Shown here piece after piece: positions 8,611-35,079 of a stretch of 35,079 bases of DNA. The DNA is from Candidatus Obscuribacteraceae bacterium (GTDB taxonomy: Bacteria > Cyanobacteriota > Vampirovibrionia > Obscuribacterales > Obscuribacteraceae): NCBI GenBank assembly GCA_044229845.1, contig JBGASG010000021.1, positions 1 through 35,079 of the forward strand, read 5' to 3'. The position numbers and the translations under genes are program-made. Positions within the stretch are counted from its first letter, which is position 1. Every line of letters begins with the position of its first letter. The notes beneath the pieces are model-generated. The model was not told the origin of the DNA. It saw only the letters and a program-made list of their open reading frames with translations, and ran no database searches.

Positions 8611-8667
8611 ATGCCTGCTTCTTTGCAGCAGCCTCTGAGATCTCAACCGATATCGGTTGAGATCTGT

Positions 8668-10661: not shown

Positions 10662-10676
10662 TTCGGGAAAGAAACA

Positions 10677-11231: not shown

Positions 11232-11235
11232 GAAT

Positions 11236-12453: not shown

Positions 12454-12454
12454 C

Positions 12455-13837: not shown

Positions 13838-13838
13838 C

Positions 13839-14840: not shown

Positions 14841-14845
14841 ACAAA

Positions 14846-16028: not shown

Positions 16029-16387
16029 TTACTTTTCCGGCAGTGCCGCCCCCTCGCTGTAAGTTGCGTAGAGGCGATCAGCCAGTTCGCCAGTCTGCCA
16101 ACAGTCTTGGTGAGGTTGCTCAGCTCAGAGTCCCACTTCTCGTCGGTGAGAATCATTTTCGATAAAGGCGAAGAAACTCTCTGCATAAGGCTGCCAGCTA
16201 TTCGCTTGCGGCAAGTCGTATGAAACCAAAACCGGCTGACAAGATCGATGGGAGCATTTCAGTCAATCGATCGGCTCAGCCAGTTCAGTCACTGGCACAG
16301 GATTATGGCAGGTCGCCTTTCTCAAAATCTGATGCAAGCGAGTTGTGCCAATTATTTTGAAGGAATTCTGATGGAAGCTCACTACTA

Positions 16388-17815
16388 CTAGGAGTGTGGC
16401 GTCGCAATCGCCTGGCGCAAGAAGCCGCAGGCCCAGTCGTGGAGCCGGTTCCATCCAGTTACATGGCGCATAGACAACATGCGGCGGCGCTTTTCTTCAA
16501 CGCCCATGGTTAGAGCAGCCATAATGCCTTCGGCCACATCCTGAGCGTCCAGAGAATCGACAAGTACGGCGCCGCTCATTAGTTCGGCAGCCGAGCCTGC
16601 TTGTTTGCCCAGAACCAGAACGCCCTGCTCATCGAGTCGGCAGGCCACGAACTCTTTGGCGATCAGGTTAAGACCATCGCGGATCGGGGTGACTGCAACC
16701 ACATCGGCGGCCTGATACCAGGCTGCCAGTTCAGCATGGGGAACCTGCCCTTCAATCCAGACGATTGGTTGCCACATGTCGGCTTGGAAGCGCTGGTTAA
16801 CTTCGTTGACGCGACTGATGACTTGTTGGCGGTACTCCTCAAAGGAGGCAGTTTTTGCCAGCGCCGGCTGTGCCAGTTGCACATAGTGGAAACGTCTGTG
16901 CCACTCGGGGTTGAGCTCGAGAAACTTCTCGAGAGCGTTGATCTTCTCCAGAACGCCTTTCGTGTAATCCAGGCGGTCCACACCCAGAACGATCTGCTGA
17001 GCGAGGCGATGTTTCACAATCAGAGCTTCTGATTCACCGCGCGAGCTTTTGGACAGACGCTGCCAGTAAGGGAAATCCAGCCCCAGGGGCATCGAGACGA
17101 TGCGCGTGGTCAGCCCCTGTACGTGAACTTCGGCTTTTTCGGTGTCGATCACTGCATCGGGGAAGATGGCCTGGACTGTGGCGAGGAAATTATTGGCATA
17201 TTCCAGAGTGTGGAAACCGAGCAGACGGTTGGAGAGTAGCGCCAGGACCAGTTCTTTTCCGACCGGCGAATCTGTGATGACTTCCGGTTGCGGCCAGGGC
17301 GCGTGCCAGAACTGAGAAACGATAATGCCGGCCTCGTGAGCCAGAAGCGGCGCAACCAGCGCCGTTTCGAAGTCGTGCAGCCAGATCAGGGTCGGAAAGC
17401 TGCGCGCCGAGATGGAAAGCGACTGATGGGCAAGCAGCTGAGACAGCTTGCGAAAGCTCATCCAGGCTTCGTGGTCGAAACGGGCACGCTCAGGCAGTCC
17501 ATGCATGAGAGGCCAGAGATAATCGTAGAGAGCAGCCAGATGGCTGTCTTTGACGGCTTGCGGGATTTCGGGAGAAAAGAAACTAAACCCGGGCATCTGC
17601 TGGTCGGAAGCATCGGGTACGCCGGAGCAGGCAATCCATTGCACTTTCGTTCCCAGCTGTCTGGTCAGGGGTCCAAGACTGGCAGAAACTCCGCCTCCAA
17701 CGCCGGGACCTCGGTAAGAAACGATTCGGAGCGCCGGTAGATGAATCTGTAGCGCACCCAAATCCTCCTGTGTGAGAGGCGAGAGAAGTGGCGGTTGCTG
17801 AGTTGCTGCACGCAT
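16388..17815 (-). CDS. otsA: Glycosyltransferase family 20, trehalose-6-phosphate synthase-like
   Basis: 'LWPLMH', 'IWLHDF', 'FWHAPWP', 'LGVDRLDYTKG', 'DGLNLIAKEF'. Glucosylglycerol-phosphate synthase cannot be excluded. Confidence 0.82.
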   Translation of the reverse strand: MRAATQQPPLLSPLTQEDLGALQIHLPALRIVSYRGPGVGGGVSASLGPLTRQLGTKVQWIACSGVPDASDQQMPGFSFFSPEIPQAVKDSHLAALYDYLWPLMHGLPERARFDHEAWMSFRKLSQLLAHQSLSISARSFPTLIWLHDFETALVAPLLAHEAGIIVSQFWHAPWPQPEVITDSPVGKELVLALLSNRLLGFHTLEYANNFLATVQAIFPDAVIDTEKAEVHVQGLTTRIVSMPLGLDFPYWQRLSKSSRGESEALIVKHRLAQQIVLGVDRLDYTKGVLEKINALEKFLELNPEWHRRFHYVQLAQPALAKTASFEEYRQQVISRVNEVNQRFQADMWQPIVWIEGQVPHAELAAWYQAADVVAVTPIRDGLNLIAKEFVACRLDEQGVLVLGKQAGSAAELMSGAVLVDSLDAQDVAEGIMAALTMGVEEKRRRMLSMRHVTGWNRLHDWACGFLRQAIATPHS

Positions 17816-18051
17816 GGGGGTTATTCCTGATATTTAGCCTGAAAACGTGTTTCCAGTGAGCCGGAAGGCTTCAATAAGCCCATTTCCGGCTGGTTTAAGG
17901 TTGCCTAGCCAATAGAATTTATACAGCTATTCAAAATAATCGAAAAACAGCAAGTAATCAAGTTGAATTCAGAATGGATTACAAATATATAAATCGCCTA
18001 TCCGATACAGTACGATCTGCTGCCCATGCGGGTTTTCGAGGGACTGAAGTC

Positions 18052-18085
18052 CGAAACGGAAGCTAGCAAAAGGCTTCCGGTTTCG
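18052..18085 (-). terminator. Imperfect hairpin downstream of ribBA (possible terminator)
   Basis: cgaaac-ggaagc...gcttcc-g-gtttcg, 40 nt past the ribBA stop. No strong U tract. Confidence 0.4.
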
Positions 18086-18124
18086 CCTCCTGGTGCCACT
18101 ATATTTGGTATCAGAAAGTAGTCT

Positions 18125-19468
18125 TTAGAGATTGGGGCAAGATGCCGCCGGCGGCGGGCTGCTGATGCCGTCCAACCAGTGTCCCAGCTTCTCTTTCTTG
18201 GTGAGGAGGTAGTGCAGATTGTGGCTGTTGCAGGCTGGCGGCAAGCCGACGCGTCCGGAAACAGTCAAGCCGTAGCCTTCCAACCCAATGATCTTGCGTG
18301 GATTATTGGTGATGATCCGCACCGACGAAAGTCCCAGATCGCAGAGGATCTGTGCGCCGGTTCCATAGTCACGCAGATCAGGACGAAAACCTAGTGACTC
18401 GTTGGCCTGCACGGTGTCCTGTCCTTCATCCTGAAGCATGTAGGCCTTCAATTTGTTCATTAGCCCGATGCCGCGCCCTTCCTGACGCAGATAGACGAGC
18501 ACGCCGTAATCTTCCTGGGCGATCATGGAGATTGCCGCTTCCAGTTGCGGACCACAGTCGCACCGCAAACTGGCGAACACATCGCCGGTCAAGCACTCGC
18601 TGTGGACGCGAATCAGAACATCGGACTTACCGGACACATCGCCTTTGACGATGGCGAGATGTTCGGATCCATCGAGCTTGTTGCTATATGCAAAAATCTT
18701 GAACTCGCCGTAAGCGGACGGCAGGACCGTTTCGGCTTCGCGAACGACAAACCGTTCGCGTCGCAGACGGTATGCAATCAGCTGTGCGATGTTGATCACT
18801 TTTAGTCCATGCTTGGCGGCAAATTGCATCAACTGCGGAACTCGCGCCATCGTGCCGTCGGCATTGATAATTTCGCAGATTACTCCGGCTGGTGTGAAAC
18901 CGGCCAGGCGTGCCAGGTCTACGGCAGCTTCGGTGTGACCGGCGCGCTGCAGAACACCGCCTGGTTTAGCAATTAGTGGAGAGATGTGTCCGGGACGGCG
19001 CAAGTCGGCCGGCTTGCAGGAAGCATCGACTGCAACACGAATTGTTGTAGCGCGGTCATAAGCACTGATGCCGGTGGTCACACCAAATCTGGTATCAGCA
19101 TCGACAGTAACGGTGAAGGCAGTGTTCTGCGATTCGGTGTTGCGCTCGACCATGTAAGGCAGATTCAACTGGTCGGCTTTTTCGGTGGTCAGCGCCAGGC
19201 AGACCCAGCCTCTGGCCTCGGTGATCATGAAGTTGATCATGGCTGGAGTAACCAGCTCAGCGGCGCAAATCAAGTCACCTTCGTTTTCGCGGCCCTCATC
19301 GTCGGCAACGATTACGAACTTGCCGCGACGCAGTTCATCAATAGCTTCTTCAATGGTGCTGAAGGTGATTGCGCTGGCAGAACTTTCTGCTGCAGCGGGG
19401 ACTGGGCTCTCGCAAGGAGTGGGAAAAATTACACCGGCATCGTCGAGATGGACGTGTTTGTTTGCCAT
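18125..19468 (-). CDS. ribBA: Bifunctional DHBP synthase / GTP cyclohydrolase II
   Basis: '[11 protein letters not shown]', 'RPGHISPL...[11 protein letters not shown]', '[20 protein letters not shown]', '[11 protein letters not shown]'. Start ATG 19468 follows GAGGA. Confidence 0.96.
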
Positions 19469-19509
19469 GCTTGTTTGTTTCCTCAGCAGTCGCCCCAATC
19501 GTCAGGTTG

Positions 19510-20190
19510 TTAAGTGTAACTGTCCTCAGATGCAAACGACAGCGATAACCCCCCTTTGTTAATGTTTTGGCCGACGTGTGGCTGCAGCATACGAGCGACG
19601 AATTTGCCGATCAAATCAGCTTCTATGTTGACCATGTCGCCCGCCTTGAGAGCCCCCAGCGTGGTCACTTCCAGGGTGTGCGGAATCAACGCGACCGCAA
19701 AGCGGAATTTGTCGGCGACCCCCTCTGCTGAGTTTTCTTTAAGATAAACCAGGGTGAGGCTGACACCGTCGATTGTGACACTGCCCTTTTCGATGAAAAA
19801 TGGCGCCAGCTCCACTGTCGACTCAAATTCCACCAGGTTGGAGAAACCCTCTTTGGTGATCGATGTCACCGTCGCCTGCGCGTCGACATGCCCCGAAACC
19901 AGATGTCCGCCCAGACGATCGTTAAGTCGCAAAGCGCGCTCTAGATTGACGCGATCGCCGACTTTGAGCAATCCCAGCTTGGTGCGCCGCAGCGTTTCCT
20001 GCACCGCCTCCACTTCAAACCAGTTTGGTTGAAACGCGGTGATAGTCAGGCAACAGCCCGAGGTGGAGATAGAATCTCCCACCTTCGCATCTTGCAAAAT
20101 CAGCTTCGCATCAATGCGCAGTCGGCATCCATCGGACGTGGTCTCGATGGCGCTGATTACACCAACTTCTTCAACGATTCCTGAAAACAA
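19510..20190 (-). CDS. ribE: Riboflavin synthase alpha chain
   Basis: TTG start at 20190 gives the canonical MFSGIVEE. Also 'GDSISTSGCCLT', 'VNLERAL...RLGGHLVSGHVD', 'KGSVTIDGVSLT'. Confidence 0.95.
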   Translation of the reverse strand: MFSGIVEEVGVISAIETTSDGCRLRIDAKLILQDAKVGDSISTSGCCLTITAFQPNWFEVEAVQETLRRTKLGLLKVGDRVNLERALRLNDRLGGHLVSGHVDAQATVTSITKEGFSNLVEFESTVELAPFFIEKGSVTIDGVSLTLVYLKENSAEGVADKFRFAVALIPHTLEVTTLGALKAGDMVNIEADLIGKFVARMLQPHVGQNINKGGLSLSFASEDSYT

Positions 20191-20253
20191 GACGTGCGCC
20201 CTCACTGCTTGATGGAGAGCACATTGTACATGGACCGGCGACCGGCTCGTGGA

Positions 20254-20826
20254 CTACTGCGGCTGTTGTTGTTGCACTTGCGCAGACATGTCGACCATGT
20301 CGACCAGAATCGGCTCTTTATTGTCCCGGCGTTGACCGATGTAATACTTGAGTGCAATCGGTTGGTCTTCGACGCCTTCGGCTGAGTGTTTGACCACGTG
20401 GCCACGGACATACATGGGCACCTGCCCGTTGGCTTCGGGTTGGTCCGCCATCTTGATCGACTCGATGAGAACCGCCGATACAGTCTTGGTTTCGGTGAGC
20501 ATGCGAGTCTGCGCAATCGCTTCTTCCGGCGTCGGCGGCAAGAACTTGCACTTCTTCAACTTCTTAAGCAGGCTGGGACCCAGTTCTTGTTTCTCCAGCA
20601 TGGTGACGGACTGCGGGAAAGTCAAATATGTGCAATCAAGCAGGTGATAAGTGACGATGCGCGCGAACCGGTCGAAGTTGACCTTTTGTTCGGCGGTCAC
20701 GGCTTTCGATGGCATCATCTTAGGCAACATGAACAGGTTGAAGAGGACGCTGGCTGCCAGGGCGCCGTGCACACCATATTGGCGGACAAACTCTTCGGGA
20801 TTGAATTTTCTGATTCGCCAGTACAT
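20254..20826 (-). CDS. Bitopic membrane protein, putative VirB8/TraE-like (NTF2-like) subunit
   Basis: Short N-terminus and one TM, then helical 'FDRFARIVTYHLLDCTY..F' followed by alternating beta strands. Lies downstream of virB4. The ORF is solid; the family is inferred. Confidence 0.5.
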   Translation of the reverse strand: MYWRIRKFNPEEFVRQYGVHGALAASVLFNLFMLPKMMPSKAVTAEQKVNFDRFARIVTYHLLDCTYLTFPQSVTMLEKQELGPSLLKKLKKCKFLPPTPEEAIAQTRMLTETKTVSAVLIESIKMADQPEANGQVPMYVRGHVVKHSAEGVEDQPIALKYYIGQRRDNKEPILVDMVDMSAQVQQQQPQ

Positions 20827-20846
20827 CGTTGCTGTTCCTCACTGAG

Positions 20847-21224
20847 TCATTGGTACTCTACGCGACCGAGCTCCCACTGATTGTTCTTCTTATAGAAGTT
20901 CAGAGTAGCTCCACAGTCAACGACTTCGGACTGTCCCGGTCCGTCGCCGGTGGTAAGCGAAATTTGTTGCCTACCCTTTACCTTTACTATAGCGTCATTT
21001 GCCGTTTTTTGAACCACCGAAACATCGGTGATTTCAGCTTTTGATGCCCATTTCTGCGTCGCCGATTGCGACCAGTTCCAGGTAAAAACGTCATAGGCGT
21101 AGTCTTTTGCCACTTCCTGCAGGCGCATATTGGCGACAAACTGCAATCCGGCGTAGACCACAAGAAAGACGGCGCAAAAGCCAACAAACCATTTGCCCGG
21201 GCTGAAGATTTTATTGACGTCCAT
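20847..21224 (-). CDS. Small bitopic membrane protein (NTF2/cystatin-like beta domain)
   Basis: TM at about residues 12-30, a helix, then strands ending 'LNFYKKNNQWELGRVEY'. Confidence 0.6.
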   Translation of the reverse strand: MDVNKIFSPGKWFVGFCAVFLVVYAGLQFVANMRLQEVAKDYAYDVFTWNWSQSATQKWASKAEITDVSVVQKTANDAIVKVKGRQQISLTTGDGPGQSEVVDCGATLNFYKKNNQWELGRVEYQ

Positions 21225-21262
21225 TGTCGCGGGTATCTTTCGGTCGGGTGTCTGTCAGTTCG

Positions 21263-23690
21263 CTATTGCTCGTGCTGCAAGCCCAGGTAATAAACCGCTT
21301 GCCGGCAAGCGTCCGTATGGCTGAGCTGCGGGTTTTTGGCTTTCACTTCACGAATCATCTCAGCCCGGCGCGGAATGTCTTTGATCGGTTCTGACGTGCA
21401 GATCCAGTAATCCATCGGGCTGGGCACCAGTCGAATGGTGCCGTGCACACCGCCGACGATCAAGAGGCACTGGCTGTCGCGTCGTTTCTCTTCGTCTTTG
21501 GTGAAGTTTTCGATGTGCTGTACTTCGGCATCCGTCAGTCTGAGCGTTTCTTTCAAAAGGCGCAGATCGGAGGGATCCTGACGCAAGAGAATCTTCATGT
21601 GGGCGTTTTTGACGACCGAATCGGCAAGTTCAGCCTGCCGGAAAAAGTCTTTCAACTGCTGCGTAATGGTGACCAGCATCATACCGTAGTGGCGGGCGCG
21701 TCTCGAGAGATCGTCCAACAGGCGCGCCCCGGCTTTGAACCGCATCAGTGTCGCGGCTTCGTCGATGATGGCGGCAAATCTGATGCCGCGCGCCTTGCTC
21801 TCGGCTGCTTTGCGGCGAATAAATTCCGCCAGGATGAACACCGCCATCCGTTCCAGACGCGGGTCGTTGACTTCTCTGGTATCAAATACGATGAACAGTT
21901 TTTCGGTGTCGACGTTGGTGTAGCCATCGACCAATCCGCCGAAGGCACCAGCGCGCGTAAACAACGAAAGACCTCTGGAGAACTGCTGCAGGCGGTCTCT
22001 CTGCAGCGGATCGATTTCGTCGGCGGCTGCCTGGGTGGTGACGCGAGCCAGATCCGACATGGTGGGCACGGTACCACGGAGAGTGGCATCCATGTAAGCC
22101 ACGCGAATCAAACCATCGAGCAAGGATTTTTCTTCGACGTTCAACTCTTCGCGCCCTTCCGGAGCCAGCATGATGTCCAAAAGTGACAGCAGGTTACTGA
22201 CTTTGTCTGCCGAAGGCTCGCCGGGATTGTCTTCCGGTCCGAGATCGAACGGGTTGAGAATAAATCCCGAGTTGGGACCGAGGTCCACATAAGCGCAATA
22301 TTCCGGACCGAGAAGTTCGGTCAAGAAACGGTAGGCGCCGAATTTGTCGACAGTCTTATCAATCAGCACAAAGCGTGTGCCCAGTGGCAGAAGGCGCAAA
22401 ATCATCATAGACACGGCGAACGATTTACCGGCACCGGTCGTCCCTACAACAAACATGTTGTTCGCGTCTTTGCCGGCACCCCTGAAAAACGGGTTGAGCA
22501 GCACCGGTTCGCGCGATGCGATCGCAAAGCCGAACGGCACGCCATCTGGGGTTCCGCAACTGGCTGTGAAGAACGGCCAGAAAGTACCCACCACCGGTGA
22601 CATCACACGATGAACAATGGCCAGCTTGTCCACGCCCATCGGCAAGGTCGATTGCCAGGCATCGAACTGCAGCATCTGGGCTCGATCCAGAATGGCACCG
22701 CGGTTCTTGAACACGCGGCGGATTTCATCCATGTGTTGCGCGAGTTTTTCAGGCGTTTCACCGTGCGTCTTGATGTAGACGCTGATGTCGAATGCTTTAT
22801 TTGACGAGCGAAGAAACTCTTGAATGGCTGCCGCTGCGCTCCTGGTCGACTCCAAACCTTCAAGGTCGGGAGTGGCGAGCTGCGTCGATGCCACCATACC
22901 CAAGCGATAGCGTGTGGTGAGTTTTTTGCGCACCGAATCCTGATCGCACATGTGAATGTACATGGTCATCGTGTACTCGACCGAAAGCGTCAGCAGATCG
23001 ACGAGCCAACCCATCCAGGTTTCGTGCGGGGTTTCCGCCATGTACTGGGTGCCCATATACTTGCCGTCCAGCCAGACGTTTTCTTCGCCGACTCTCAAGG
23101 CTGACCGAGCCAGCACCGATGATTCTGATTGTCCCGGTCTGGTTGCCGGTGCTTCATCATCCATCTCGGAAAGCGTGGGGTTGAGGTTGGCGTAAATCAA
23201 TTTGCGCACTTCGCGACGATTGAGCATCACCGGTCGCAAGTTGGAACCGCGCAGTTGTTCGAAACAGGTCTTCACCAGACGATTGAGGGTTTCTACAAAT
23301 TCCTCGTGCTTCTGGATTGAACGGCGCCCCGACCAGGGCTGCGTCAAATTTTTGGTGTCAGGCGGGTTGTAGCTGACGACGATATAGAAATCGCGTTGCG
23401 GCACGAAGTGAACTTCCTGCACGCGCCGGAACCATTTATCCGTGTAGTCTGCATACCACTTCAAGTACTCGTTGTCGGTCTTCAACAGCATGGTGTAACG
23501 CTGCAGATATTCATCTACTGAAAGGTTGCGCGATGAAATGATGATTTGAATGTCCGAATCGCAGGAGTTTGCCAGCGAAGCAAACCCGCGGGCCAACATT
23601 TCACGCTCAGCCTCATCGAACAAAAGCGCATTTATGCCTTTGCAGCCGATAAACTTTCGCATGCTGCCGTCTGCGAGCACGACCAGATCG
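21263..23690 (-). CDS. virB4: VirB4/TraC-family ATPase; true start lies in the corrupted region upstream (possibly ATG 24590)
   Basis: Walker A 'VVGTTGAGKS', 'LNPFD', Walker B 'AAIIDEA', 'RRARHYG..LVTITQQLKDF', 'KILLRQ', and an N-terminal TraC-like domain ('QFDAWQSTLPMG'). Confidence 0.88.
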
Positions 23691-24990
23691 GGTTTGTGTC
23701 TTGCCGGCTTCGCAAGTTAAAGGCGAACCGCGCACCATTTCAGTTGTTCGAAACAGGATTTCTTCACCAGACGATTGATCGGGTTTCGTCCGCAGCCAGT
23801 TTTCGAATTCGCGCGACTGGGGAATCGTGCTTCATGGATTGAACCAGGGGCGCCTTCCCGACCGAGCCCGGCTGCGATGAGCCATGAATTTGTTGATTGA
23901 CTGAGGCGCTTTTCGATGGTTTGGGTTGGTTGCCCAATCGCTCCTTCCGGCTGAGGCAGGTTGTAGCTGACGACGACTCGCTGTTCCGGTAGTCAAAAAT
24001 CACACCCATTTGACGCGTGTTGAACTTCACGTTGCGGATATCGATAATCTGATCCAAGTGAACTTGGCACCTGGATTTTGAACGCAGCCTGATCGCTCGA
24101 AATCCTTCCATAAGGACATAACGGTAAAGTTGCGCGTCTGCGCCTGAAGCAGCGCCGTAAGTCTGCATACCACGGTTGGGGTTTCACCATTTCTTTGAAG
24201 TACTCGTCCGTCGGCGCAGGATTTCGCCTATCAACAGCATGAGCTCCTGAGGGTGTATGGCTGCGACGCGATTGATTGCGCAGCTTCGGAAGCCAGAGAC
24301 TTATGGAATCATGCGCGAACTATCCGCTGAAATCGGTTGCGCGATGGCGCTGCCCGGTAGCCCTGTGAGCCCGGTTGTCCGCGGATGGACTGAGGCGTTT
24401 CTTCAATGGTCCGGCTTTGCCGAATCGGCATAGCGAGTTTCAGTTTGGACAGTGCCGCAACTCGCTGTTCCGGTAGCCGGGTCGTTCCGCCCATCTCAGT
24501 TGAAGCCGGTTGGCGCCCGAGACGCTGATATCGATAATCATCTGGGTTCACGCTCATGCGCACGCACTCGCTGTCCGGAAACTGCGTCATAATTTCAGCA
24601 GCCCCTGACTTCCCACATAGAATTCTTGCAGATCACAGATGCCAGGTGGACTTCACCGAATGGATCGTTGACGCTCTTGCGCGCGCCATGTCCGCCCGGA
24701 AGTCCCCGGACGTCCGCCTTGAACCGGCGTTCCTTACCCAGCGACGTGAATGCGCTACCTGAGCCCTGTCCGCCCGGTTGTCCGCGCATAAGCGCGGCTC
24801 CCGATGTCCGGCTTTGCCTGGCAAATTCATGGCCCGGACCGCTGCGAGCGATGTGTTTTCCTCCGGCTGTCGGCGTATAGCGAGCCACTGCTCTCCGGCT
24901 CCCGGCGACCGGTGGTTCCGCCTCTCAGTGAGCCTGCGAGACGCTGGTATCGCTGTCCACCACTCGCTGTCCGAAACAACGTCTGCGAGG
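23680..24990. other. Mosaic of interleaved near-duplicate blocks (probable assembly/consensus artefact)
   Basis: Exact 13-18 nt blocks recur in colinear order: 23252-23286 at 23741-23778, 23365-23382 at 23959-23976, 23447-23459 at 24161-24173, 23977 vs 24461, 24037 vs 24527, 24369 vs 24772, 24565 vs 24961. Confidence 0.8.
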
Positions 24991-25131
24991 TGCCGCCTCT
25001 GGTTGCCACCGCCCGAGATTTCAACGCCGCACCAGCTGCGGTGGCAGCCGCCGAGACTTCGCGCAGACTCCCGTATCGACGACTGCTGGCTGCCGCCTGT
25101 GAGGTTTTGCTGGAAATTCTGCGCGACTGTA

Positions 25132-28100
25132 TCAATCAGACCAGCCTGGCTGCTGCTGAATCACGGACGGCTGGATATAACCGGCACTAATGGCATTGCC
25201 GGTTTCCGCAGCCCGCGCCTCCATTTGATTGCGCACTTCTTGTTGCAGTTGCGACCCGGCACTGGCAACGATGTCCTGACCAGCCGCCTGCGATGAGGCG
25301 ATGATCTGACTGCCGGCGGAGCCTTGCACCACCGAAGTATCGATGTTTGGCGCGGCATTAGCCGGCGGCACAATCGTCGACGATGAGTCGATCGAGTTGA
25401 GCGCACCACCTGTGTAGCTGGTGAATTGCATCGCGTTGTCGTTGTACGCCTGCCCCGTCGTCACATCATAGGAGTAGTTGGGATTGTAGACCGTACCGCC
25501 GTCGATTGAACCATAGGTGGTATCACCGTGGATGGTATCACCGTGATAGACATTACCGGCTGCTCCGGAGGCGATACCGGCTGTGTCGATACCGGAGCTG
25601 ATGCTGCCCATTGAAGAAACGGCACCGGCTTGTCCGACAGCCACGACGTTGGCCGACGAAGCCGCATCAGATGCGATGCGCGAGAGCTGGGTCTGCACAT
25701 CAGAATAAACCGCTTGTTGCTGTTGCTGCATAGCAGTTTGCACAGCTTGCTGAATATTCTGTTGCGTCTGATCGAAGACCGCCTGGGCGGCTGGATTATT
25801 TTGCAGAGCTTGCTGCATTTGCTGCTGCTGCATGAGCTGCTGCATCTGCTGCGCCTGTTGTTGCATCTGCGCGGCGACAGCGGCTTGCTGCTGCTGCACG
25901 TGTTGCTGCCAGGCTTGCTGCGCTTGCTGCTGGGCCTGCTGCTGCATTTGCGCGGCCACTCCCGGATCTTGGGAAGCCCCGGCAGCGTTTGGACCTTGCA
26001 TTTGCTGGTTGTATTGCTGCTGCATTTGCTGCGCCACTTGCAGGCTGTCTTGCGCCTGGCGAGCCAGTAGCTGTTGGATGTCCTGCTGTTGTTGCTGCTG
26101 TTGCTGCTGCAACGCTTGCTGCACCGCCTGCTGTTGACCGGGAGCGGTGCCGGCGAGCATTTGCTGCATGAGCTTATCTTGTTCAGCTTGTATCTGCTGC
26201 TGCGTCTGCGCTTGCTGCTGACCGAGAGCTTGCGCCATCGCGGTGCCCTGAACGTCACGAGCCAGTTGCTCGGCTTGCGACGCGGAGGCATTGATATTGC
26301 TGAACTCAGTGGCCATGCTGTTGTAATCGGTGTCGCTAACATTCAGCTGATCGAAATCGATGATGTCGGCGCTGTTGGCCATGCGGGCATAATCCAGTGA
26401 GCCGTCACTGTTGGTGAACTGCGAGAACTGGGCGGGATTGGAAGCCGCCAGGTTCATCAGCTGCTGATTCATGCTGTTGTACGAAGCATCCAGACCGCCA
26501 AGCGACGTGTTGAAGCTGGCGCTGAAATTATGACTCGCACTGGCATCGATTTGTGGTGCGTGCAGTTTGAGATCGTTCATGTGTTGCTGCGCGGCTTGCA
26601 ATGCCAGCATGTGAACAGCTGCTTCTTTGGAGTTCATGCCGGGCGGCGTCAAGCCGTGTCCGTGTCCATGTCCGCCGGTGCCGGCACCGAACTGCGCGTG
26701 CAGAGCGTGCATGGCATTCATGTGCTGATTGTGGAAGGCGGCATGAGAAGCGCTGGAGAAAGCGTTATAACTGGCGCCGAAGGTTGACCCGCCGCCGGTG
26801 TAGCTGACACTGCTGGCGCCGAGAATACCGGCCGCCGCTGCCGCGACATCACTGTCTTGCGCACCGAAAAATCCGGCTGCACCGCTGCCGGCATCTAAGC
26901 CGTCAGACCCGAGCCCGGCTATCGGAGGCGGCACAAAGCCGGCGCTGGCACCGCCGCCTCCACCACCGCCGTCGGCGGCCGAGAGCATGCTGAACGAACC
27001 GCCACCGTGAGCACCACCGCCCACGCCACCGCCTTCGGCTCCGGCTCCGGAGTAGCCGTAGCCGCCGCCGGAAACCAGACTGCCGCCCGGTCCATGTCCG
27101 AATGGACTGGCGTGCGAAGGAGTGTGTCCGGCCGAGCTGGTACCGACTGTGGTGCCGCCCGTGGACGCAGATGTACCGGTGCCGATGCCCGGCGCATGAG
27201 ACGCGGCTGCATGCCCGCTGCTCGGACCTGAGGACGCTGCAGTCGATCCTTTGCCGGCACCTTTGCTGGCCCCGACACCGGCGCCGGCGCTTTGACCCAT
27301 TTTGCCCGCCTGACCGAGAGCCTGTCCGGCGGCAGCCTGTCCGGCTGCTTTCACCAGTCCGGCGAAGTCGAAGGCGTACTTGACGGCTGCATTGGATAGG
27401 AAGAGCAGCGCGGCAGTGATTACCGAACCAGTGTCATCCACTCCGCGGAAGCAAGCCATCAGCAGCACCACGGTGTTCCAGAAAAGAGACCAGAAGCACA
27501 GGGTGACCACGCCCTCTGTCCAACTGGGAAGAGCTTCGCGCAATTGCTTGGATGGCCAGACCCAGAGGGCGGCCACGACCGGCCCCACACACCAGAGGTA
27601 ATAGAGGTAGGCCATCTGGAAGGCGCAAAGAATATTCCAGGTTGCAGCCAGACCGGCGTTGGAGATGCCCATCATGGCACGCTCGGAAGTGGATACGAAG
27701 GGAGCCGCTTCATTGGTGCGCTCGGGCGGAACGATACGGGTATTGGCGCACGGATCTTCCAGCATGTTGGACGTCGTCTGTCCTTCCATAACGGCTGCCG
27801 GAGTCTGGTTTTTCGGTCCTTTCGGATCGAGCTGGTCCCATTGTGTCGGCGGGCGGAAGATGCCGTTGTCGTTTTCGTGAGCCATGCGGATCGGGAATGC
27901 GCGCACATGCAAGCAGAGGGCATCTTTGTACATGTCCGAGTTGAAAATGCGCTTGTACTCACTGGCGATGGTGTAGGTGATCGAGTTGGCAACGTCGATA
28001 CCGTAGTTGATCACCAGATAGGTAGCCGGAATCAAGAATATGGCAACTATCGAACGCAATATGCCTTCGAAGGGGCTGGACACATCTTGAATAACGGGCG

Positions 28101-28932
28101 TACCGGCCGAGACGATTGCCTTCACCTGAGCCAGCACCGCCCCTGGTAGCAGAATCAAAATCGCCATCGGAATAAAAAGCTGATCGCGAATCTTGTTCCA
28201 GCGGTTGCCTTGATCGACAGTGAAGTTGTAGAGATAACTGGCGGTGAAGTCGATGGCTGAAGCTGCCTGGTTTCTTTCCAGGTTGGCAGCGGAGTCGGCG
28301 GTGTTCTGCATCTGCATGTTGCCCATGGAACCCATGGTCCACATAACGCGCTCGGGATCGAACATTTCAGCCAGCATGATGTTCTGGTTGTAGCGATGGA
28401 TCATTTGATATTGCGTGTCGGACACTGGGTAGCCCCAGGTCTTCAACATGTGATCGCCGATACCTTCGTCGCGCTTGGTGGCCAGAGGCGAGGTGGCTGT
28501 AGGAATTTCCACGGGCCATTTATAGACATCGTGCAATGTGATCTGTCCCGGTCCCACCGACTTGCGGTCGACGACTTCGTCATGTCCCATCGGGTGAACT
28601 TCTTTGGGCACGAATGGTGCGTTGTTGGGATCGGCGTACGTGTAGTCCTGGCGGATGTTTGCCGGGTTAAAATACGGGTGGCTGTTGTTACGGTTGAGCA
28701 GATCGTTCTGACCGCCATTCTGCAGCGGCTGCGGATTGGCGGTGGCACCACCCTGGTTTTGTCCACCCGGATTGGGGATGCGCGGCGGAGTTTGCGCAAC
28801 CGCCGGGTTCGTCGAACCGACGATACCGATGATCAGGGCGCCGACGGCGGCCAGTGTCAAATACGCCAGAGTCAGGCGCTTTGTCAGTTGCATTGGTTGC
28901 TTGCGGAGAATCATTTTTATTGCCTCGTGCAT
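25132..28932 (-). CDS. Extended VirB6/TrbL-like membrane protein with Gly/Ser-rich and Gln-rich C-terminal region (probably continues by frameshifts to about 24633)
   Basis: Signal peptide, then 'LFIPMAILILLPGAV...ILRSIVAIFLIP...IDVANSIT...YYLWCVGPVVAALWVWP...SWTEGVVTLCFW', a VirB6-like TM layout. Adjacent to virB4. Confidence 0.7.
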   Translation of the reverse strand: MHEAIKMILRKQPMQLTKRLTLAYLTLAAVGALIIGIVGSTNPAVAQTPPRIPNPGGQNQGGATANPQPLQNGGQNDLLNRNNSHPYFNPANIRQDYTYADPNNAPFVPKEVHPMGHDEVVDRKSVGPGQITLHDVYKWPVEIPTATSPLATKRDEGIGDHMLKTWGYPVSDTQYQMIHRYNQNIMLAEMFDPERVMWTMGSMGNMQMQNTADSAANLERNQAASAIDFTASYLYNFTVDQGNRWNKIRDQLFIPMAILILLPGAVLAQVKAIVSAGTPVIQDVSSPFEGILRSIVAIFLIPATYLVINYGIDVANSITYTIASEYKRIFNSDMYKDALCLHVRAFPIRMAHENDNGIFRPPTQWDQLDPKGPKNQTPAAVMEGQTTSNMLEDPCANTRIVPPERTNEAAPFVSTSERAMMGISNAGLAATWNILCAFQMAYLYYLWCVGPVVAALWVWPSKQLREALPSWTEGVVTLCFWSLFWNTVVLLMACFRGVDDTGSVITAALLFLSNAAVKYAFDFAGLVKAAGQAAAGQALGQAGKMGQSAGAGVGASKGAGKGSTAASSGPSSGHAAASHAPGIGTGTSASTGGTTVGTSSAGHTPSHASPFGHGPGGSLVSGGGYGYSGAGAEGGGVGGGAHGGGSFSMLSAADGGGGGGGASAGFVPPPIAGLGSDGLDAGSGAAGFFGAQDSDVAAAAAGILGASSVSYTGGGSTFGASYNAFSSASHAAFHNQHMNAMHALHAQFGAGTGGHGHGHGLTPPGMNSKEAAVHMLALQAAQQHMNDLKLHAPQIDASASHNFSASFNTSLGGLDASYNSMNQQLMNLAASNPAQFSQFTNSDGSLDYARMANSADIIDFDQLNVSDTDYNSMATEFSNINASASQAEQLARDVQGTAMAQALGQQQAQTQQQIQAEQDKLMQQMLAGTAPGQQQAVQQALQQQQQQQQQDIQQLLARQAQDSLQVAQQMQQQYNQQMQGPNAAGASQDPGVAAQMQQQAQQQAQQAWQQHVQQQQAAVAAQMQQQAQQMQQLMQQQQMQQALQNNPAAQAVFDQTQQNIQQAVQTAMQQQQQAVYSDVQTQLSRIASDAASSANVVAVGQAGAVSSMGSISSGIDTAGIASGAAGNVYHGDTIHGDTTYGSIDGGTVYNPNYSYDVTTGQAYNDNAMQFTSYTGGALNSIDSSSTIVPPANAAPNIDTSVVQGSAGSQIIASSQAAGQDIVASAGSQLQQEVRNQMEARAAETGNAISAGYIQPSVIQQQPGWSD

Positions 28933-28966
28933 TCAAGAGAGAGGGAAGAGAAGGGGAAACGAAATG

Positions 28967-31270
28967 CTATGAGTTTTCGTTTTTCTTTCCTCCGCCTCCT
29001 GCGTGAACGATGATGGTGTTTTGCTGTCCGCCGGCGAATCCCGGGAAGGCTTTGGTTGGCGATGATCGCGGCGCGGCTTGCGGTGGCTCGCTCTTATGCG
29101 ACGACGGCGGCGGTGCCACTGCGGGCGCTACCATGGACGGGGAATTGCCCTGTCCTGACGGCGGCACGACAGTATTGTTGACCAGCACGTTGGACTGAGT
29201 GAGATTGTTGCCGGCCGGCTGTGCCGCTGGTGGCGGGGCTGCCAGTTTGCCCAGGTTTCCGATCGCTTCGCCCGAGGGGGACGCACCGCTGTAAGCTGCC
29301 GATGCTTGTTCGAACATGGAGCCGGTGTTGGTCATTTGCTCGGACATCTGTTTCATCTGAGCATTGCCGCCGGCCATCTGCCCCATGCTCTGTCCCATTT
29401 GCTTGGCGCCTTGCGCACCTTGCTCGAGGACTTTGGCAGCTACTTCACCGGGTTTGAATTCAAACGGCTGGAATGGAACATACATGAGCAGTCCCATAAA
29501 GCAGGTAAACATCATCATTTCCCACTGCGTGTTCGGTGTGTACCAGCCCATTTCTTTGAGCCAGGCGATGCGCACGCACATGCAGGCGAGCACTACCATC
29601 CACCAGAATCTCCAGAGACCGAGAATGGTGATGGCATCCACCCACGTCGAGAAAACCCGGCGGAAAAGCCCTTGCTGACCATATCCTGAGGGCCAGGCAA
29701 ACAGTGATGCGGCGATCGGCCCCATGAGCAGCAGGTAGCACATCATCACCAGTTGGAACCCGGTGAGCACTACCAGTGCCTGTCCCATGAAGAAGTTCAT
29801 GACGTTATAGCCGAACTGCATCATGTTGGAGAGTTGTGTTTGTTTCTCAACTTCCGAGTCTTCTTCCGGCATTTCGTACTCTTTACCGTCCCAGTGAGGC
29901 TGCAAAGTCGGAATACCGTCGCCGCGAATTTCCATTTGTTCGGGGCGCTCGGACCACGGTCTATACGGATCCGGTTCCAGCACGTTCTGCGAGTTTTCGT
30001 GCGGAGCGTTGTAGGTCTGCTCGCGAGTGTACTTGAAGAGTTCTTCCGGGAACATCAACTCATTAGTGATGTAGCGCCGCACTTCATAGGTCATCGAGTT
30101 GCCGATGTCGATGATGTAACTGACATAAAGTTGTGTAGCCGGAATCAAAAACACGGCGATAATGGCGCGTAAAATTCCGGCGAAGGGGCTGACGGCATCT
30201 TCGTCTTTGGCTTCGCCCATCATGCCGAATTTGACCATGCCTTTCATTTGCGTCATGACGGCGCCCGGCAAAAGCAACAGAATGGCCATCGGAATGTACA
30301 CCTGCTTGTACATTTGCTGAACCATATATATGGCTTGCGGAATGGTTTTGTGAGCGGGATTGCCGGTTACCGGATCAGCTGCATCTTCGTTGGCGACGTT
30401 GATCAAAGATTCTTCGATCGTTCTCACCGATGTTTCGAAAGTCTGTTCGGAAGCCTGCGCAGCGGATTCCGTCAGCTGCTGGTGCTGGATATCTTTGGAA
30501 GCTTCCATCGTCCACATCCAGCGTTCCGGATCGAATGCCAGTTCTAAGAAACGCTGGTTGTCTTCTCTGTCGATGCCCTGAAATTGCGTATCGGAGATAG
30601 GTCCGACGCCGAACGTGGTCATCTCGTATTCCCACAATTCTTCGTCCCTGGCTTGCGCGATGTTACTTTTGTTGTCGTCGGACAGATAAGGTTGCAAGTA
30701 ACAGGGTATATCGTAACTAGTCGGAGTCCTAACTGTTACTGGATGAGGAAATTTAGGCGAGAGCGAACTTGAACTCATGATCACCGAAGGTGTCGGAGGC
30801 ATGAAAAAGCCTACGTTGCCGCAGGGTTTCATGAGCGGCCAATACTGAGGGCGGGTAGCCGCCTTCCTATCTCCATTCGTGGCTTTAGCCGCTTTTTGCA
30901 TAAGCGTGGGGCCCGGGTCAATTTGTATTTGACCTGGAATCATGGTCCCATCGTCGGCCTGCGTTGGTTGGCCCAAATAAATAGTTTGCTTCGGATGTTC
31001 ATTCATCGTCTCGCGCTTGGTCATCTCTTCGGCCAACTTCGCATACGGAAAGCGCAAGTGATAGCCTTCCTGGCGGTTGGTGTAGTTGTTATGGAAGAGG
31101 TTGCGCTGCTCGTTGCCGGCGATATCAATCGCCTGCACATCGGGACGCGGGCTTGGCGCTGGCGTTTGTGTCTGCGCTGATACCGGTGTCTGCGACATCG
31201 GCCACAGAAGCAAAGCCAACCCGGCGGCCGCCGCGAAGGACCTTAGTGTAGTAAATAGAGAGTTATTCAT
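28967..31270 (-). CDS. Second extended VirB6/TrbL-like membrane protein (paralogue of 25132..28932)
   Basis: Signal peptide ending VSA-Q, then 'VYIPMAILLLLPGAV...ILRAIIAVFLIP...IDIGNSMT...CYLLLMGPIAASLFAWP...STWVDAITILGLW'. Confidence 0.7.
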   Translation of the reverse strand: MNNSLFTTLRSFAAAAGLALLLWPMSQTPVSAQTQTPAPSPRPDVQAIDIAGNEQRNLFHNNYTNRQEGYHLRFPYAKLAEEMTKRETMNEHPKQTIYLGQPTQADDGTMIPGQIQIDPGPTLMQKAAKATNGDRKAATRPQYWPLMKPCGNVGFFMPPTPSVIMSSSSLSPKFPHPVTVRTPTSYDIPCYLQPYLSDDNKSNIAQARDEELWEYEMTTFGVGPISDTQFQGIDREDNQRFLELAFDPERWMWTMEASKDIQHQQLTESAAQASEQTFETSVRTIEESLINVANEDAADPVTGNPAHKTIPQAIYMVQQMYKQVYIPMAILLLLPGAVMTQMKGMVKFGMMGEAKDEDAVSPFAGILRAIIAVFLIPATQLYVSYIIDIGNSMTYEVRRYITNELMFPEELFKYTREQTYNAPHENSQNVLEPDPYRPWSERPEQMEIRGDGIPTLQPHWDGKEYEMPEEDSEVEKQTQLSNMMQFGYNVMNFFMGQALVVLTGFQLVMMCYLLLMGPIAASLFAWPSGYGQQGLFRRVFSTWVDAITILGLWRFWWMVVLACMCVRIAWLKEMGWYTPNTQWEMMMFTCFMGLLMYVPFQPFEFKPGEVAAKVLEQGAQGAKQMGQSMGQMAGGNAQMKQMSEQMTNTGSMFEQASAAYSGASPSGEAIGNLGKLAAPPPAAQPAGNNLTQSNVLVNNTVVPPSGQGNSPSMVAPAVAPPPSSHKSEPPQAAPRSSPTKAFPGFAGGQQNTIIVHAGGGGKKNENS

Positions 31271-31299
31271 ACCATCCCACCCGGTACTACTGACTGAAG

Positions 31300-33275
31300 C
31301 TAACGGTGCATCGTGATCGTGCGTCCCCCGTCGGAAAGTGACACTTTCAGTTTGTCGTTCCAGGGCCGGCCGAAAATTGTGATGGTGCCGGTAATTTCCT
31401 GATTTGGCTGTACGACGGTAGTATCAAATTCCGCTCTCACAGCCGCTTCCGCCAATCTGTGGTCGCCCTCGGCCACCGTCACCACGTCCGGGTCGAACTT
31501 GAATTGTTCATCGCCGTTGTTGCGTATAGCAACACGCAGTACCGATTTGCGAGGGGTGGTCTGAACCTCTTTCAATTGAAATGCAACGGAACCCGATGGT
31601 GCTGCCGCCGGTTTCTCAACCGGTTCTTCCACCACTTCAGCTTTGCCTTTGGGCGCATCGGCAGGACGCGCGGCTATCGCTTCTTGTGGGGCTTTGACGC
31701 CTTTGCCCTTCTTGTCTTTGTTCTTGTCGTCTTTGACTTTTTCGGGCTTGGCTTTGGCCACTTGTTGTTCTTCACCACCGGCGGTATCACCGTCCGCCGC
31801 CTGTTGTTTCTTGCCGCCCAAACCGATCATCCCGCCCATGTTGCCAAAGAACCCGCCTACCGAGCTCATGACTTTGGCTGTGCCGGATGCCTGTGGGGCT
31901 TCTTTCTGGGGCTCCGCTTGAGCTAGCGACTCAAGGCTGGGAGCCGTTCCCGATACGCGCTGAATAACAGAACGCGCGGCCGGGGCGCCGGATATTCCGG
32001 CCAGATCATTTTGCGCTGAGCGCAGGTCGTCTTTGGTCGAATCCGCTTCCTCTTGTGCTTTGGCTAAATCTGCCGCGGCTCTCTGTTTTTCCGAATTAGA
32101 TTCGGCAACCGATACTTCCTGCTTGCGGGCGGCCACAGTTTGCTGGGCCAGAGAGTATTTGTTGAAAGAGTAGAGGTAACGGAAGTAGGCGCTGGCGACT
32201 TCGCTTTGTATCTTCTTCACAGCCGGTACAATTGTTTGTCGGTGGCAGAGCCTTTGAACAGCATGTCGATCTGGCGCTGGCCGATGGCGGCACTACCTTT
32301 GGTGCTTTCCGAAGGCAGCCCGACGTCAACCTTGACCACGTCGGCAGCGATCTTTGCATCGCGGCAGGAAGGACCAGCGAGCCCGTTCACGGACAGAGCG
32401 GCTTTGAACAAAATCTTCAGGTCATCGCGTTGTTTGAATCCGGAGCGCGCTTCCATGCCGGTGGGAGTAATCACCTGAATGTCCGCTTTCTTCGGTTTGT
32501 CTTCCGAGGCGCCTTGTCCGGATCCGGCATCTTCCTGATTGCCGAACATGCTGCCCTGCTGGAACTTCGGCTGCTGCGGAGCAACCGGTTGCGCTCCCGG
32601 CGGGATGGCATAGGGATTGTAGGCGTACGGATTGTACTGGTAGTCAGCACCGGGTGGTGCCATGGCATACTGCGGCGGAGGGGCCGGTGCCATCGTCTGG
32701 GCCTGAGTAGACAGGGTGACGGCCGGCGGTGGAGGTATTAAGCCGGCCGACCCCCCGGAGCTTCCGTACCCGCCGTAGGACGCGACCTGCTGCGGTGGAG
32801 GGGATGCAGCTGGTTGCGATTGTCCAAACGGCCAGAACGGATCGGAGTTGTTCTGTGTACTGGTGGATTGATCCGGGCTGCCCGGCGTTCCGCTCGGGGA
32901 GCCGCTGGTGGCATTGGCTTCGGTCGTTCCCGGTATGGAGCCGGAAGTCGATGAAGTGATCAATCCTTGCGTATTCTGTCTCTTGTAGTCGCCGGAGATA
33001 GATCCGGTTTCGACTTTCGGCAGACCGCTCCAGCCGAAGAAACCATTGTTCGAACCTTGATCCGGCCTGAAGCAATGGCTTGCTCTTGCGCCGCTTGCTG
33101 GCGCTGCAGTTCTTCCTGGCGGATCTGTTCAACCATAGCCGGGTCAGCCTTCGGGCGCAGCGAGCCGATCACGCTCATCTGCGGTTTCCCATTGGAGTGT
33201 TGTGTTGCTGTTGTCCTCATTGCACGCAGTGAGGGCGACAATAGCGAACAACAGTGTGGCTGACCGTTTCAGCAA
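31300..33275 (-). CDS. Lipoprotein with Pro/Gln linker, TolC/OEP-like helical segment and C-terminal Ig-like domain; broken by at least 3 frameshifts
   Basis: TTG 33275 gives MLKRSATLLFAIVALTA-C (lipobox). It then appears to continue through abutting ORF fragments 32960..33241, 32217..32963 and 31300..32220. Confidence 0.6.
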
Positions 33276-33280
33276 GGAGG

Positions 33281-33961
33281 TTATTTCCTTTTCTGTTGAG
33301 CAGATAACCGTGAACGGCGGTTGATGTGCTGTTGCCGCCAGCCCGAGGCGCTGCCGGAAGGTCCGTAGTTGCCACCCATAACTGGCGGCAGACGGTACAT
33401 TGGCGACGCCGCTAGCCGATGGACGTCCCATGCCGTTCGGGCGTCCGGCACCGGCGCCGGCGACTGGCGTTGGTTTTGCCCAGGGCATGATTTTGCCGTG
33501 AATACCGGAAGAGAAACCACCGGGCAACGGTCCTTTAGGACCCATGCCGCGCGACGGAATATTGGTGCCCTGCGCGCCGAAGCCGCGAGCACAGGGAAGC
33601 GGAATCGGGTTGCCGGTCAGGCCGTCCGTGCGGTAAGGTCCGCCCGGCATGCTGCCTTGCATCGGCATGCCGCCTGACGGCATCGTGCCGCCGTCATCGC
33701 CGCCGTTGGCACCACCGCCGCCACCGCCGACTCGAACCCTTGCGGAGGCGGGGCAGTTGAACTTGTTGCGGTCCTTTGGGCGCTTCGCGGAAGTCTTTGA
33801 TAATCGGGCGATCATCACCGATCTGGAACTCGCGCGGCGCGTTATACCAGTGCACTTTTTCCGCCTTCACGTTGTTGTTCGTTTGCGCGTTGGCAGCTGA
33901 GGAGATGCACATAACACCGACCGTCAGGGATACTGCCACCAGGCCGATTTTGATTTTTCAT
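33281..33961 (-). CDS. Secreted Gly/Pro-rich hypothetical protein, frameshifted
   Basis: AAGGAG RBS then ATG 33961. Joined frames give MKNQN..VAVSLTVGVMCISSAANA-QT...HWYNAPREFQIGDDRPIIKDFREAP...GGGGG...TNIPSRGMGPKGPLPGG...TAVHGYLLNRKGK, with the stop at 33281. Confidence 0.6.
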
Positions 33962-33986
33962 AAAACGAACTCCTTGCCCCTGCTCT

Positions 33987-35040
33987 TTAGAAACCAATGA
34001 TGCCGCCGGTGCCTGTATTAAGGGCACGACGACCCATGCGGATACCTGAGCGACGACACGCTTTTGCCGGGCCCGTTTCAAGAAACGCTTGGTCCGGTTA
34101 TTTTTGAACCGTCCTGACGTGTAGTCATCATCCGGGAGTGAAAGATCTTGTGTCGTAGCTTGCGTCACGACCATCGAGTCGGTGCTTCCGGCGCGCCTGC
34201 TACATCCGCTTTGGGATCGAGCGCCGGCGCTTTGCCGAAGCCGCCGCCGCCACCACCGCCGCCGTGCCGCTAATCGGGCGTTCTTGCGGAGTTGCTGGCG
34301 GTCGAATCTACCAGTGGTGCTGACTGCGACCAGGTCGCCGCCGCCGGCTGGTCTGCCTGGCGAAGGAGCCGTTTTGCATTTGTAGTAACCGACACCGTTG
34401 CCGGAGGAGTTGCTACCGCCGCCGCCACCGCCGCCACCACCGTCACCAGCGCCCCAGCCGCTGTCTTCTTCACCACCGCCGCCACCACCGCCGCCGCCGC
34501 CACCTTTCGTCTTATAGGCGCCCTGAGCGACATGCTTGTAGTGCTGGTGCATGCTGGAAGATGGTTGGCACTGCCGCCACCACCGCCGCCACCACCGCCA
34601 CCGCCACCACTGGATGACGCTTTGGATATGGCACCCCAGGTGTCGCCTGGTTTGACGGGCAGATCTAGGCGTTCTGGCAGAGGCGGAAATCCGCCTGGCG
34701 GAACCGGCTCATCAGCTGCAATCGGTTCAAGCGGAAATATCTACTCGGCACGACCACCGAGCCGCCCATGGGCACGGCGCCGCCACCGCCACCGCCGCTC
34801 TGAGCCATCGGCATCGGGGCCGGATTTCTTCTTCACATAGACGCTGCCGCCACCGCCGGTGTCGATATAACCACCGCTGCCATGACGGGTCAGAATTGTT
34901 GCTGCTGTGTACTGATTATCACCAGGTTGCTTGATCCACTTGCCCATGTTCGTGGGCGGCAACTGGTTAAGTAGCCGGTTGCACAACAACACCGACTCCC
35001 AGAAATAAACTGTACCACTGGGCGCATGCTTGGCTTTCAC
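33987..35040 (-). CDS. Poly-Gly-rich hypothetical (probably secreted) protein, frameshifted
   Basis: GGAGG RBS then GTG 35040. Joined frames give NMGKWIKQPGDNQY...PPGGFPPLPERLDLP...MHQHYKH...YYKC...VVTQATTQDLSLPDDDY...RMGRRALNTGTGGIIGF, with the stop at 33987. Confidence 0.55.
34240..34800 (-). repeat. Several (CCG/CCA)n trinucleotide runs encoding poly-Gly on the minus strand
   Basis: Runs at about 34241-34263, 34415-34441, 34472-34505, 34573-34609 and 34778-34797. Confidence 0.8.
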
Positions 35041-35079
35041 TCTCAACCCTCCAGTAGGCTTCGCCGCTAAGCTGGGCGT

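Follow-up and report, generated by a model that had tools for sequence, protein, structure and literature searches.

A chromosomal type IV secretion operon and its relaxase-bearing paralogue in Obscuribacterales

The window analysed here is an entire contig of 35,079 nucleotides (C17; GenBank JBGASG010000021.1, assembly GCA_044229845.1) from a Candidatus Obscuribacteraceae bacterium whose genome (G000) measures 5.16 Mb and is 88% complete. We call locus A the minus-strand type IV secretion system (T4SS) operon that lies inside this window, and locus B a second, paralogous T4SS operon elsewhere in the chromosome. A same-genus relative (G001), 96% identical across locus A, served as the clean reference. 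Locus A is a co-oriented run from about 35,079 to 20,254 that continues into ribE and ribBA (Table 1). An earlier sequence-only reading had correctly seen this run and its passage into ribE-ribBA and put it at about eight tightly packed genes; the number is 10, two of them masked in the window by misassembly. In G001 the order is G1 (388 amino acids, aa), G2 (262 aa), a lipoprotein (658 aa), B6a (768 aa), B6b (1507 aa), a DUF2225 protein (212 aa), a VirB3-like protein with two transmembrane segments (128 aa), VirB4 (914 aa), p125 and p190, followed by ribE and ribBA. Locus A holds a full inner-membrane T4SS gene set without a local substrate-processing module, belongs to the vertically inherited core genome of Obscuribacterales, and is a real, domesticated and apparently undescribed T4SS variant.

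Gene content of locus A

The VirB4 ATPase carries the Walker A motif GTTGAGKS and the Walker B motif IIDEA and matches the TraG P-loop and VirB4/TraC families; its best NCBIfam match is the CD1110 family, under the curated cut-off, and a match to CedB is weak and partial (E 9e-8, 31 bits vs a cut-off of 700). Between G000 and G001 we counted 90 synonymous and 3 non-synonymous differences in this gene (pN/pS 0.01, with 0.06 for ribE and ribBA), a mark of strong purifying selection. The VirB3-like gene gives weak PrgI matches in 10/40 orthologues (best E 5e-4). The two large membrane proteins are paralogous (hhalign 100%). B6a has at least four hydrophobic segments and resembles TrbL/VirB6-family clusters in the language-model features of the Atlas (best 0.92), with no relevant Pfam match among 19 members; position, hydropathy and the Atlas clusters together point with moderate confidence to a VirB6-type subunit. 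B6b combines a conserved core with a hypervariable, low-complexity tail: its orthologous open reading frames (ORFs; n=52) range from 1119 to 2334 aa, the core being matched in 52/52 and the tail in 2/52. The AlphaFold model of p190 (pLDDT 92.5) retrieves VirB8-family structures as all of its top 12 matches (best Z 14.2, rmsd 3.3 over 132 residues), and Foldseek gives VirB8 too. The intact ATPase, the paralogy of the membrane proteins and the VirB4, VirB6 and VirB8 identities had all been read from the sequence and are borne out by these results.

The envelope components are less readily named. The lipoprotein, also recognised earlier, has a conserved Cys18, a proline-rich linker, a helical hairpin and a C-terminal Ig-like beta sandwich (mean pLDDT of the model 60). 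Fold searches with the C-terminal domain return generic beta sandwiches, and the Atlas structure matches include DUF4138/TraN and CagX clusters, all at TM <0.5, a lead only towards a candidate VirB7/VirB9-like envelope part. One partial OEP match covers the helical hairpin; a TolC/OEP channel found no backing in the model or the fold searches, the OEP-matching part being modelled without barrel strands and the fold matches listing no TolC entry. About 5 kb past the window edge, in conserved synteny, lies a TrbI/VirB10-like gene found in 39/40 family genomes; the lipoprotein is present in 38/40. The two genes lie within about 10 kb of each other on one contig in 34 of the 38 genomes that have both, G000 included, and on different contigs in the remaining four. 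Some relatives of the VirB10-like protein carry the NCBI name TrbI/VirB10. Complex prediction for the VirB10-like domain with the C-terminal domain of the lipoprotein scored 0.00, and profile searches of PDB sequences with p125, the lipoprotein, the VirB10-like protein and the locus-B relaxase found nothing significant. No significant Pfam match was obtained for p125 either, nor an hhalign match to its neighbour p190; it is perhaps a second, small VirB8-like subunit of the NTF2/cystatin type. G2 is homologous to the exported protein B_218 of locus B (hhalign 95%), and G1 has no Pfam match.

Two parts of locus A are broken in this assembly. At 23,687-24,990 about 1.3 kb is scrambled and roughly 0.9 kb short of the 2.2 kb in G001, where the counterpart encodes the end of B6b, the DUF2225 protein, the VirB3/PrgI-like protein and the N-terminal 107 aa of VirB4. 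The scramble is most likely an assembly error, because depth collapses there to 0-4, vs mostly 5-30 on the flanks (contigs of two DNA metagenome runs). The frameshifts at 32.2-35.08 kb are assembly errors as well, since another contig of the same genome, C6, overlaps the right end with its frames intact, an open copy of G1 among them; the pieces of G1 in the window were matched by tblastn from the clean G001 copy. We therefore rejected genuine decay of locus A.

Locus B and the distribution of both operons

Locus B encodes exported Gly/Pro proteins, an extended VirB6, a DUF2225 protein, a VirB3-like protein, VirB4, a VirB8-like protein, VirD4 and a PF13814 protein. The first six kinds of gene follow the same order in both operons, and hhalign links G2 (95%), B6a and the locus-B VirB6 (92%) and the VirB3-like proteins (53%) across them; the VirB8-like protein was assigned by position only (17%). 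The lipoprotein and the linked VirB10-like gene belong to A only, VirD4 and a MOBC-type nuclease to B only. The sequence-only reading had recognised no VirB10, relaxase or coupling protein; this holds within the window, but a VirB10-like gene lies just beyond its edge, and VirD4 and a MOBC-type relaxase are at locus B.

The PF13814 protein matches its family, described as the MobC relaxase family (PMC5357655), above the cut-off. MOBC relaxases are PD-(D/E)XK nucleases (PMC12857230), and the locus-B protein has their winged helix-turn-helix and D..ExD nuclease motif, with D164, E182 and D184 invariant in 19 sequences and dN/dS of 0-0.026 in the seven closest pairs. The best NCBIfam match of VirD4 is of the CD1115 type, below the curated cut-off. 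VirD4 and the relaxase-like gene are each present in 58/60 family genomes, with a single locus apiece except in one genome, and are sometimes up to about 30 kb apart; the relaxase-like gene also occurs in 3/3 genomes of a second family. At 19/30 loci in many genera (L143-L168), a non-coding motif some 30 bp long is conserved 30-150 bp upstream of the relaxase-like gene and may be a promoter or a candidate origin of transfer (oriT). Elsewhere, an orphan VirB8-like gene at a contig start (G000:C11:181-879) is 33% identical to the VirB8-like protein of locus B.

We searched for VirB4 in a class-wide sample of 250 genomes. Matches were obtained in 77/77 genomes of family f1 (75 at E=0, two only via the paralogue) and in 2/2 of a second family, only distant ones in families f4 (14/25) and f10 (1/1), and none in the other seven families; 300 other Cyanobacteriota genomes, which included none of f1, f2 or f4, gave no match at E <=1e-25. 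The closest VirB4 records are mostly assigned to Obscuribacterales or Melainabacteria. Among 80 locus-A loci, counted wherever there was enough flank, VirB4 is accompanied by p125 and p190 in 73/73 and directly preceded by the VirB3-like gene in 71/71, with ribE linked in 55/58, VirB6 in 45/52 and the DUF2225 gene in 43/52. Where VirB6 is missing within 10 kb of VirB4, the VirB6 pair was found further off in 5/5 genomes tested, up to four times. FastTree trees of VirB4-A, VirB4-B and RpoB for the 17 genomes with all three markers (four lacking one were omitted) have 8-10 of 14 splits in common and no conflict among splits with support >=0.95.

Locus A lacks the hallmarks of an ICE (integrative and conjugative element). 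It is near-universal in the order and has no adjacent integrase (no direct search for att repeats was made). In its own genome, inspection by eye of 32 kb past the window edge revealed no integrase-like ORF, no tRNA flanks locus A at 14 loci except a tRNA-Arg near recA in 2/14, and relaxase and coupling protein, absent in cis at A, are both at B. The earlier view of a chromosome-resident, lineage-specific system other than an ICE thus agrees with the order-wide distribution, the congruent trees and the missing integrase.

A midpoint-rooted tree of 66 VirB4 sequences (485 columns) gives a rough placement, its environmental members having been picked by similarity to our own profile and MPF_I, MPF_G, archaeal and Patescibacteria sequences having been left out (MPF, mating-pair formation). 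VirB4 A and B sit among environmental VirB4s, grouped with FATA/FA references at support 0.978, outside the clade of three FATA-type references and apart from the single T, F, B and C references; R388 VirB4 and Alr7206, from the MPF_C system of pCC7120alpha in the same phylum, fall far off. VirB4 is nested in none of the few MPF references in this tree, in support of the sequence-only reading. Scans meant to put names to the nearest environmental VirB4s gave plasmid matches at 22-27% identity, one 2.5-kb metagenome contig and no viral match.

Several stray copies and distant relatives came up alongside. An orphan third VirB4 (G000:C13:100089-102914; L021, L250) is 66% identical to that of the window and has no T4SS neighbours, and similar third copies (61-65%) occur in several other genomes, one within locus A (L058). 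Family f4, of small-genome Melainabacteria, has a minimal T4SS-like cluster (L137:890-6142, L138:4714-9495) with an apparent VirB3-VirB4 fusion, VirB8-like and VirB6-like genes recognised by position and hydropathy, and then a histidine-kinase-like gene; at these two loci the layout differs from locus A, and the VirB4 is about 23% identical. The Myxococcus plasmid pYRE (L223), typed non-mobilizable, carries VirD4-like, VirB4 and pilin-like genes at 10657-21076, the VirD4-like gene adjoining one for a 240-aa protein without a Pfam match. A second, divergent full-length rpoB-like ORF (about 1170-1400 aa) is present in 18/20 family f1 genomes, for example G001:C1:55639-57354 (L199); a search of f2 and f4 genomes did not reveal it.

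Possible functions and known relatives

With moderate confidence, and judging from gene content, we favour the view that A and B make up a domesticated conjugation apparatus for contact-dependent chromosomal DNA exchange that is fixed in Obscuribacterales. A MOBC relaxase and VirD4 in the core genome would find their simplest explanation in chromosomal DNA transfer, and the way in which the gene contents of A and B complement each other suggests a joint task. The relaxase would nick chromosomal DNA and VirD4 would pass it to the VirB4/3/6/8 channel; locus A might contribute outer-envelope parts to a single composite machine or, alternatively, form in the partner cell a receiving channel that has no coupling protein, and the variable VirB6 tails could, more speculatively, set partner specificity. 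The domesticated envelope machine of the sequence-only reading is thus retained, whereas its emphasis on secretion or predation gives way, as the VirB10-like gene and the VirD4 and relaxase of locus B shift the weight towards conjugative DNA exchange. The stricter version, with B as donor machine (relaxase, coupling protein, channel), A as dedicated recipient channel and the VirB6 tails serving kin recognition, we consider doubtful; if true, archaeal Ced would have a counterpart in diderm bacteria, in an order-wide core genome and with an unnamed VirB4 lineage.

Several observations weigh against exchange of chromosomal DNA by A and B together. Locus A has no coupling protein, and VirD4 serves protein export too. 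Joint action of the two operons is conjectural; they lie 0.7-1.6 Mb apart in near-complete genomes, and VirB4-A and VirB4-B are about 30% identical and not sisters in the tree. The G000 assembly has neither VirD4 nor the relaxase, the start of contig C13 breaking inside VirB4-B. No oriT was identified; CagX/VirB9, a T4SS pilin (PF18895) and an above-cut-off VirB11 were found in none of 5/5 genomes searched; and the TrbI Pfam match of the VirB10-like protein (E 3e-4) is under the cut-off. G000 and G001 diverge in a mosaic pattern (from 0 to 89 mismatches per kb, with near-identical blocks several kb long), which fits recombination; because ComEC is present, ordinary competence could account for it equally, and the pattern does not separate the two routes.

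The main rival, which we regard as possible if unlikely, makes locus A a stand-alone T4SS for protein translocation or attachment to a host, prey or partner cell, and B a separate DNA system. It fits the lack of a coupling protein and relaxase at A, and it suits the variable B6b tails; Brucella VirB and Ptl are known systems of this kind and have no coupling protein. VirB6 pairs in up to four copies in some genomes recall Rickettsia rvh (PMC2653234), a predatory relative exists in the same class (PMC4451040), and a precedent has been proposed for Patescibacteria. However, locus A contains no conserved effector-like gene, its layout is paralogous to that of the relaxase-bearing operon B, and no such system was found in the other Melainabacteria families searched save the distant, differently built f4/f10 cluster.

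That locus A is an independent DNA-uptake machine, comparable to Helicobacter ComB, which supplies RecA repair and works separately from B, seems improbable. T4SSs without a coupling protein do include importers (PMC12857230), and in G000/G001 and in G013 the distance from recA to the start of the operon is about 12 kb; yet recA is linked in only 2/7 relatives whose upstream region was fetched far enough, and the genome already has ComEC and matches to PilB/PilT-like ATPases. We give still less credence to a cell-cell junction or envelope scaffold of purely structural role, its transport function lost: the many low-complexity exported proteins and the lack of a known substrate would suit one, but the ATPase has kept its motifs intact and is very strongly conserved in them, and the paralogous operon B retains its DNA-processing genes. 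An ICE or plasmid region that is mobile or in decay, suggested by the frameshifts, the scrambled stretch and, in G001, an island with integrase genes about 22 kb upstream, is largely refuted and very improbable, given that the breaks are assembly errors, that the island is absent from G000, and that synteny is order-wide, the trees congruent and selection purifying.

Several described systems resemble the two operons in part. The T4SS of Patescibacteria is likewise a chromosomal, lineage-wide VirB4/VirB3(PrgI)/VirB6 system, akin to the MPF_FATA conjugation of monoderms and with its coupling protein usually encoded far away (PMC12102498). Obscuribacterales differ in being diderm, in their clear VirB8 and single-gene VirB4, and in having a pair of paralogous operons along with a lipoprotein, a VirB10-like gene and a MOBC-type relaxase that is conserved; a pilin was not found. 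Archaeal Ced/Ted are domesticated chromosomal conjugation genes that move cellular DNA (PMC9905601), as those of Obscuribacterales may do; the host here is bacterial and diderm, the partner locus B has VirD4 and a relaxase, and again no pilin was found. The MPF_FATA/FA systems share the CD1110-type VirB4, the CD1115-type VirD4, the PrgI-like VirB3, a VirD4 beside a MOBC-type gene and the lack of VirB11 (PMC12857230, PMC5357655), but our matches all fall under the curated cut-offs, and the loci are core-chromosomal without an integrase and outside the FATA reference clade of our tree. Like rvh of Rickettsiales, they show vertical inheritance, several loci, duplicated VirB4 and VirB8 and an expanded VirB6, whereas rvh has recognised VirB1, 2, 7, 9 and 11, none of which was found here, where a relaxase has been kept (PMC2653234). 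The T4SS proposed for predation in Vampirovibrio, of the same class, is a different, T-type system (PMC4451040). We found no account of the loci in literature on secretion or conjugation in Obscuribacterales, Melainabacteria or Vampirovibrionia, including the accessible text of PMC4451040 and PMC8600333, a scope that largely excludes subscription papers and supplements; supplementary tables of genome-wide CONJscan surveys might list them.

If DNA exchange is indeed their role, the retention of two T4SS operons with a relaxase and a coupling protein as order-wide core genes would represent a rare domesticated chromosome exchange in bacteria, since conjugation genes are normally mobile; the finding gains weight once locus B is counted in. 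It would provide a testable trait for uncultured, non-photosynthetic relatives of cyanobacteria, in a lineage common in sludge and water, and the loci offer new references for a VirB4 clade that has no name and lies near monoderm systems yet in a diderm host. Should locus A deliver proteins instead, it would point to an unrecognised contact-dependent lifestyle.

Surroundings of locus A

Table 1. Coordinates of locus A and adjoining genes in the window
Feature	Position	Strand	Remarks
Exported Gly-rich G1	33987..35079	-	388 aa from first ATG in G001; frameshifted in window; 5' end at window edge
Exported Gly/Pro-rich G2	33281..34051	-	262 aa
Lipoprotein	31300..33275	-	658 aa; single frameshift near 32230 in this assembly
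B6a, extended VirB6/TrbL-like polytopic protein	28967..31270	-	767 aa
B6b, extended VirB6-like	25132..28932	-	1507 aa in G001; frameshift near 25148 in window
Misassembled stretch	23687..24990	-	In relatives: B6b end, DUF2225 protein, VirB3/PrgI-like, VirB4 N-terminus
VirB4 ATPase	21263..23686	-	914 aa in G001; Walker A and B intact
p125, bitopic 125-aa protein	20847..21224	-	Kept in 73/73 loci with enough flank
p190, VirB8-fold bitopic protein	20254..20826	-	190 aa; predicted structure and fold matches
ribE	19510-20205	-	Conserved housekeeping neighbour
ribBA	18125-19498	-	Conserved housekeeping neighbour

ribE and ribBA are probably not part of the machine, variable inserted genes often separating them from locus A. 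At the other end the operon had been thought perhaps to extend past the right edge; instead it starts there, and a divergent operon follows, with two TPR proteins, a 149-aa membrane protein and the TrbI/VirB10-like protein, then ubiX and, in both G000 and G001, recA and lnt. The composition of locus A (GC 0.49-0.59; GC at third codon positions, GC3, 0.57-0.70) resembles that of its neighbours (GC 0.54-0.58, GC3 0.62-0.64), in line with the earlier impression. RNA contigs from two studies, unstranded and without a silent control, span G1/G2, the lipoprotein, VirB4 and p190/p125, with little over B6b. The integrase-bearing island of G001 (L104:3906-13000) is strain-specific and holds two integrase-like genes and one primase-like gene.

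A palindrome with a 14-bp core and longer flanking symmetry occurs in 36 copies in G000 (<=1 mismatch), for example at window position 8645, and 19 of the 36 lie within about 105 kb of C6 beside locus A (G000:C6:178-283 kb). We rejected it as a conserved operator upstream of locus A, as it is a genus-level interspersed repeat; it is a candidate REP-like repeat or regional chromosome-organising site. Farther left in the window are NADH dehydrogenase subunit genes (10677-16028) and a trehalose-6-phosphate synthase family gene (16388-17815), between which G001 carries a 3.3-kb glycosyltransferase-like gene that the window lacks.

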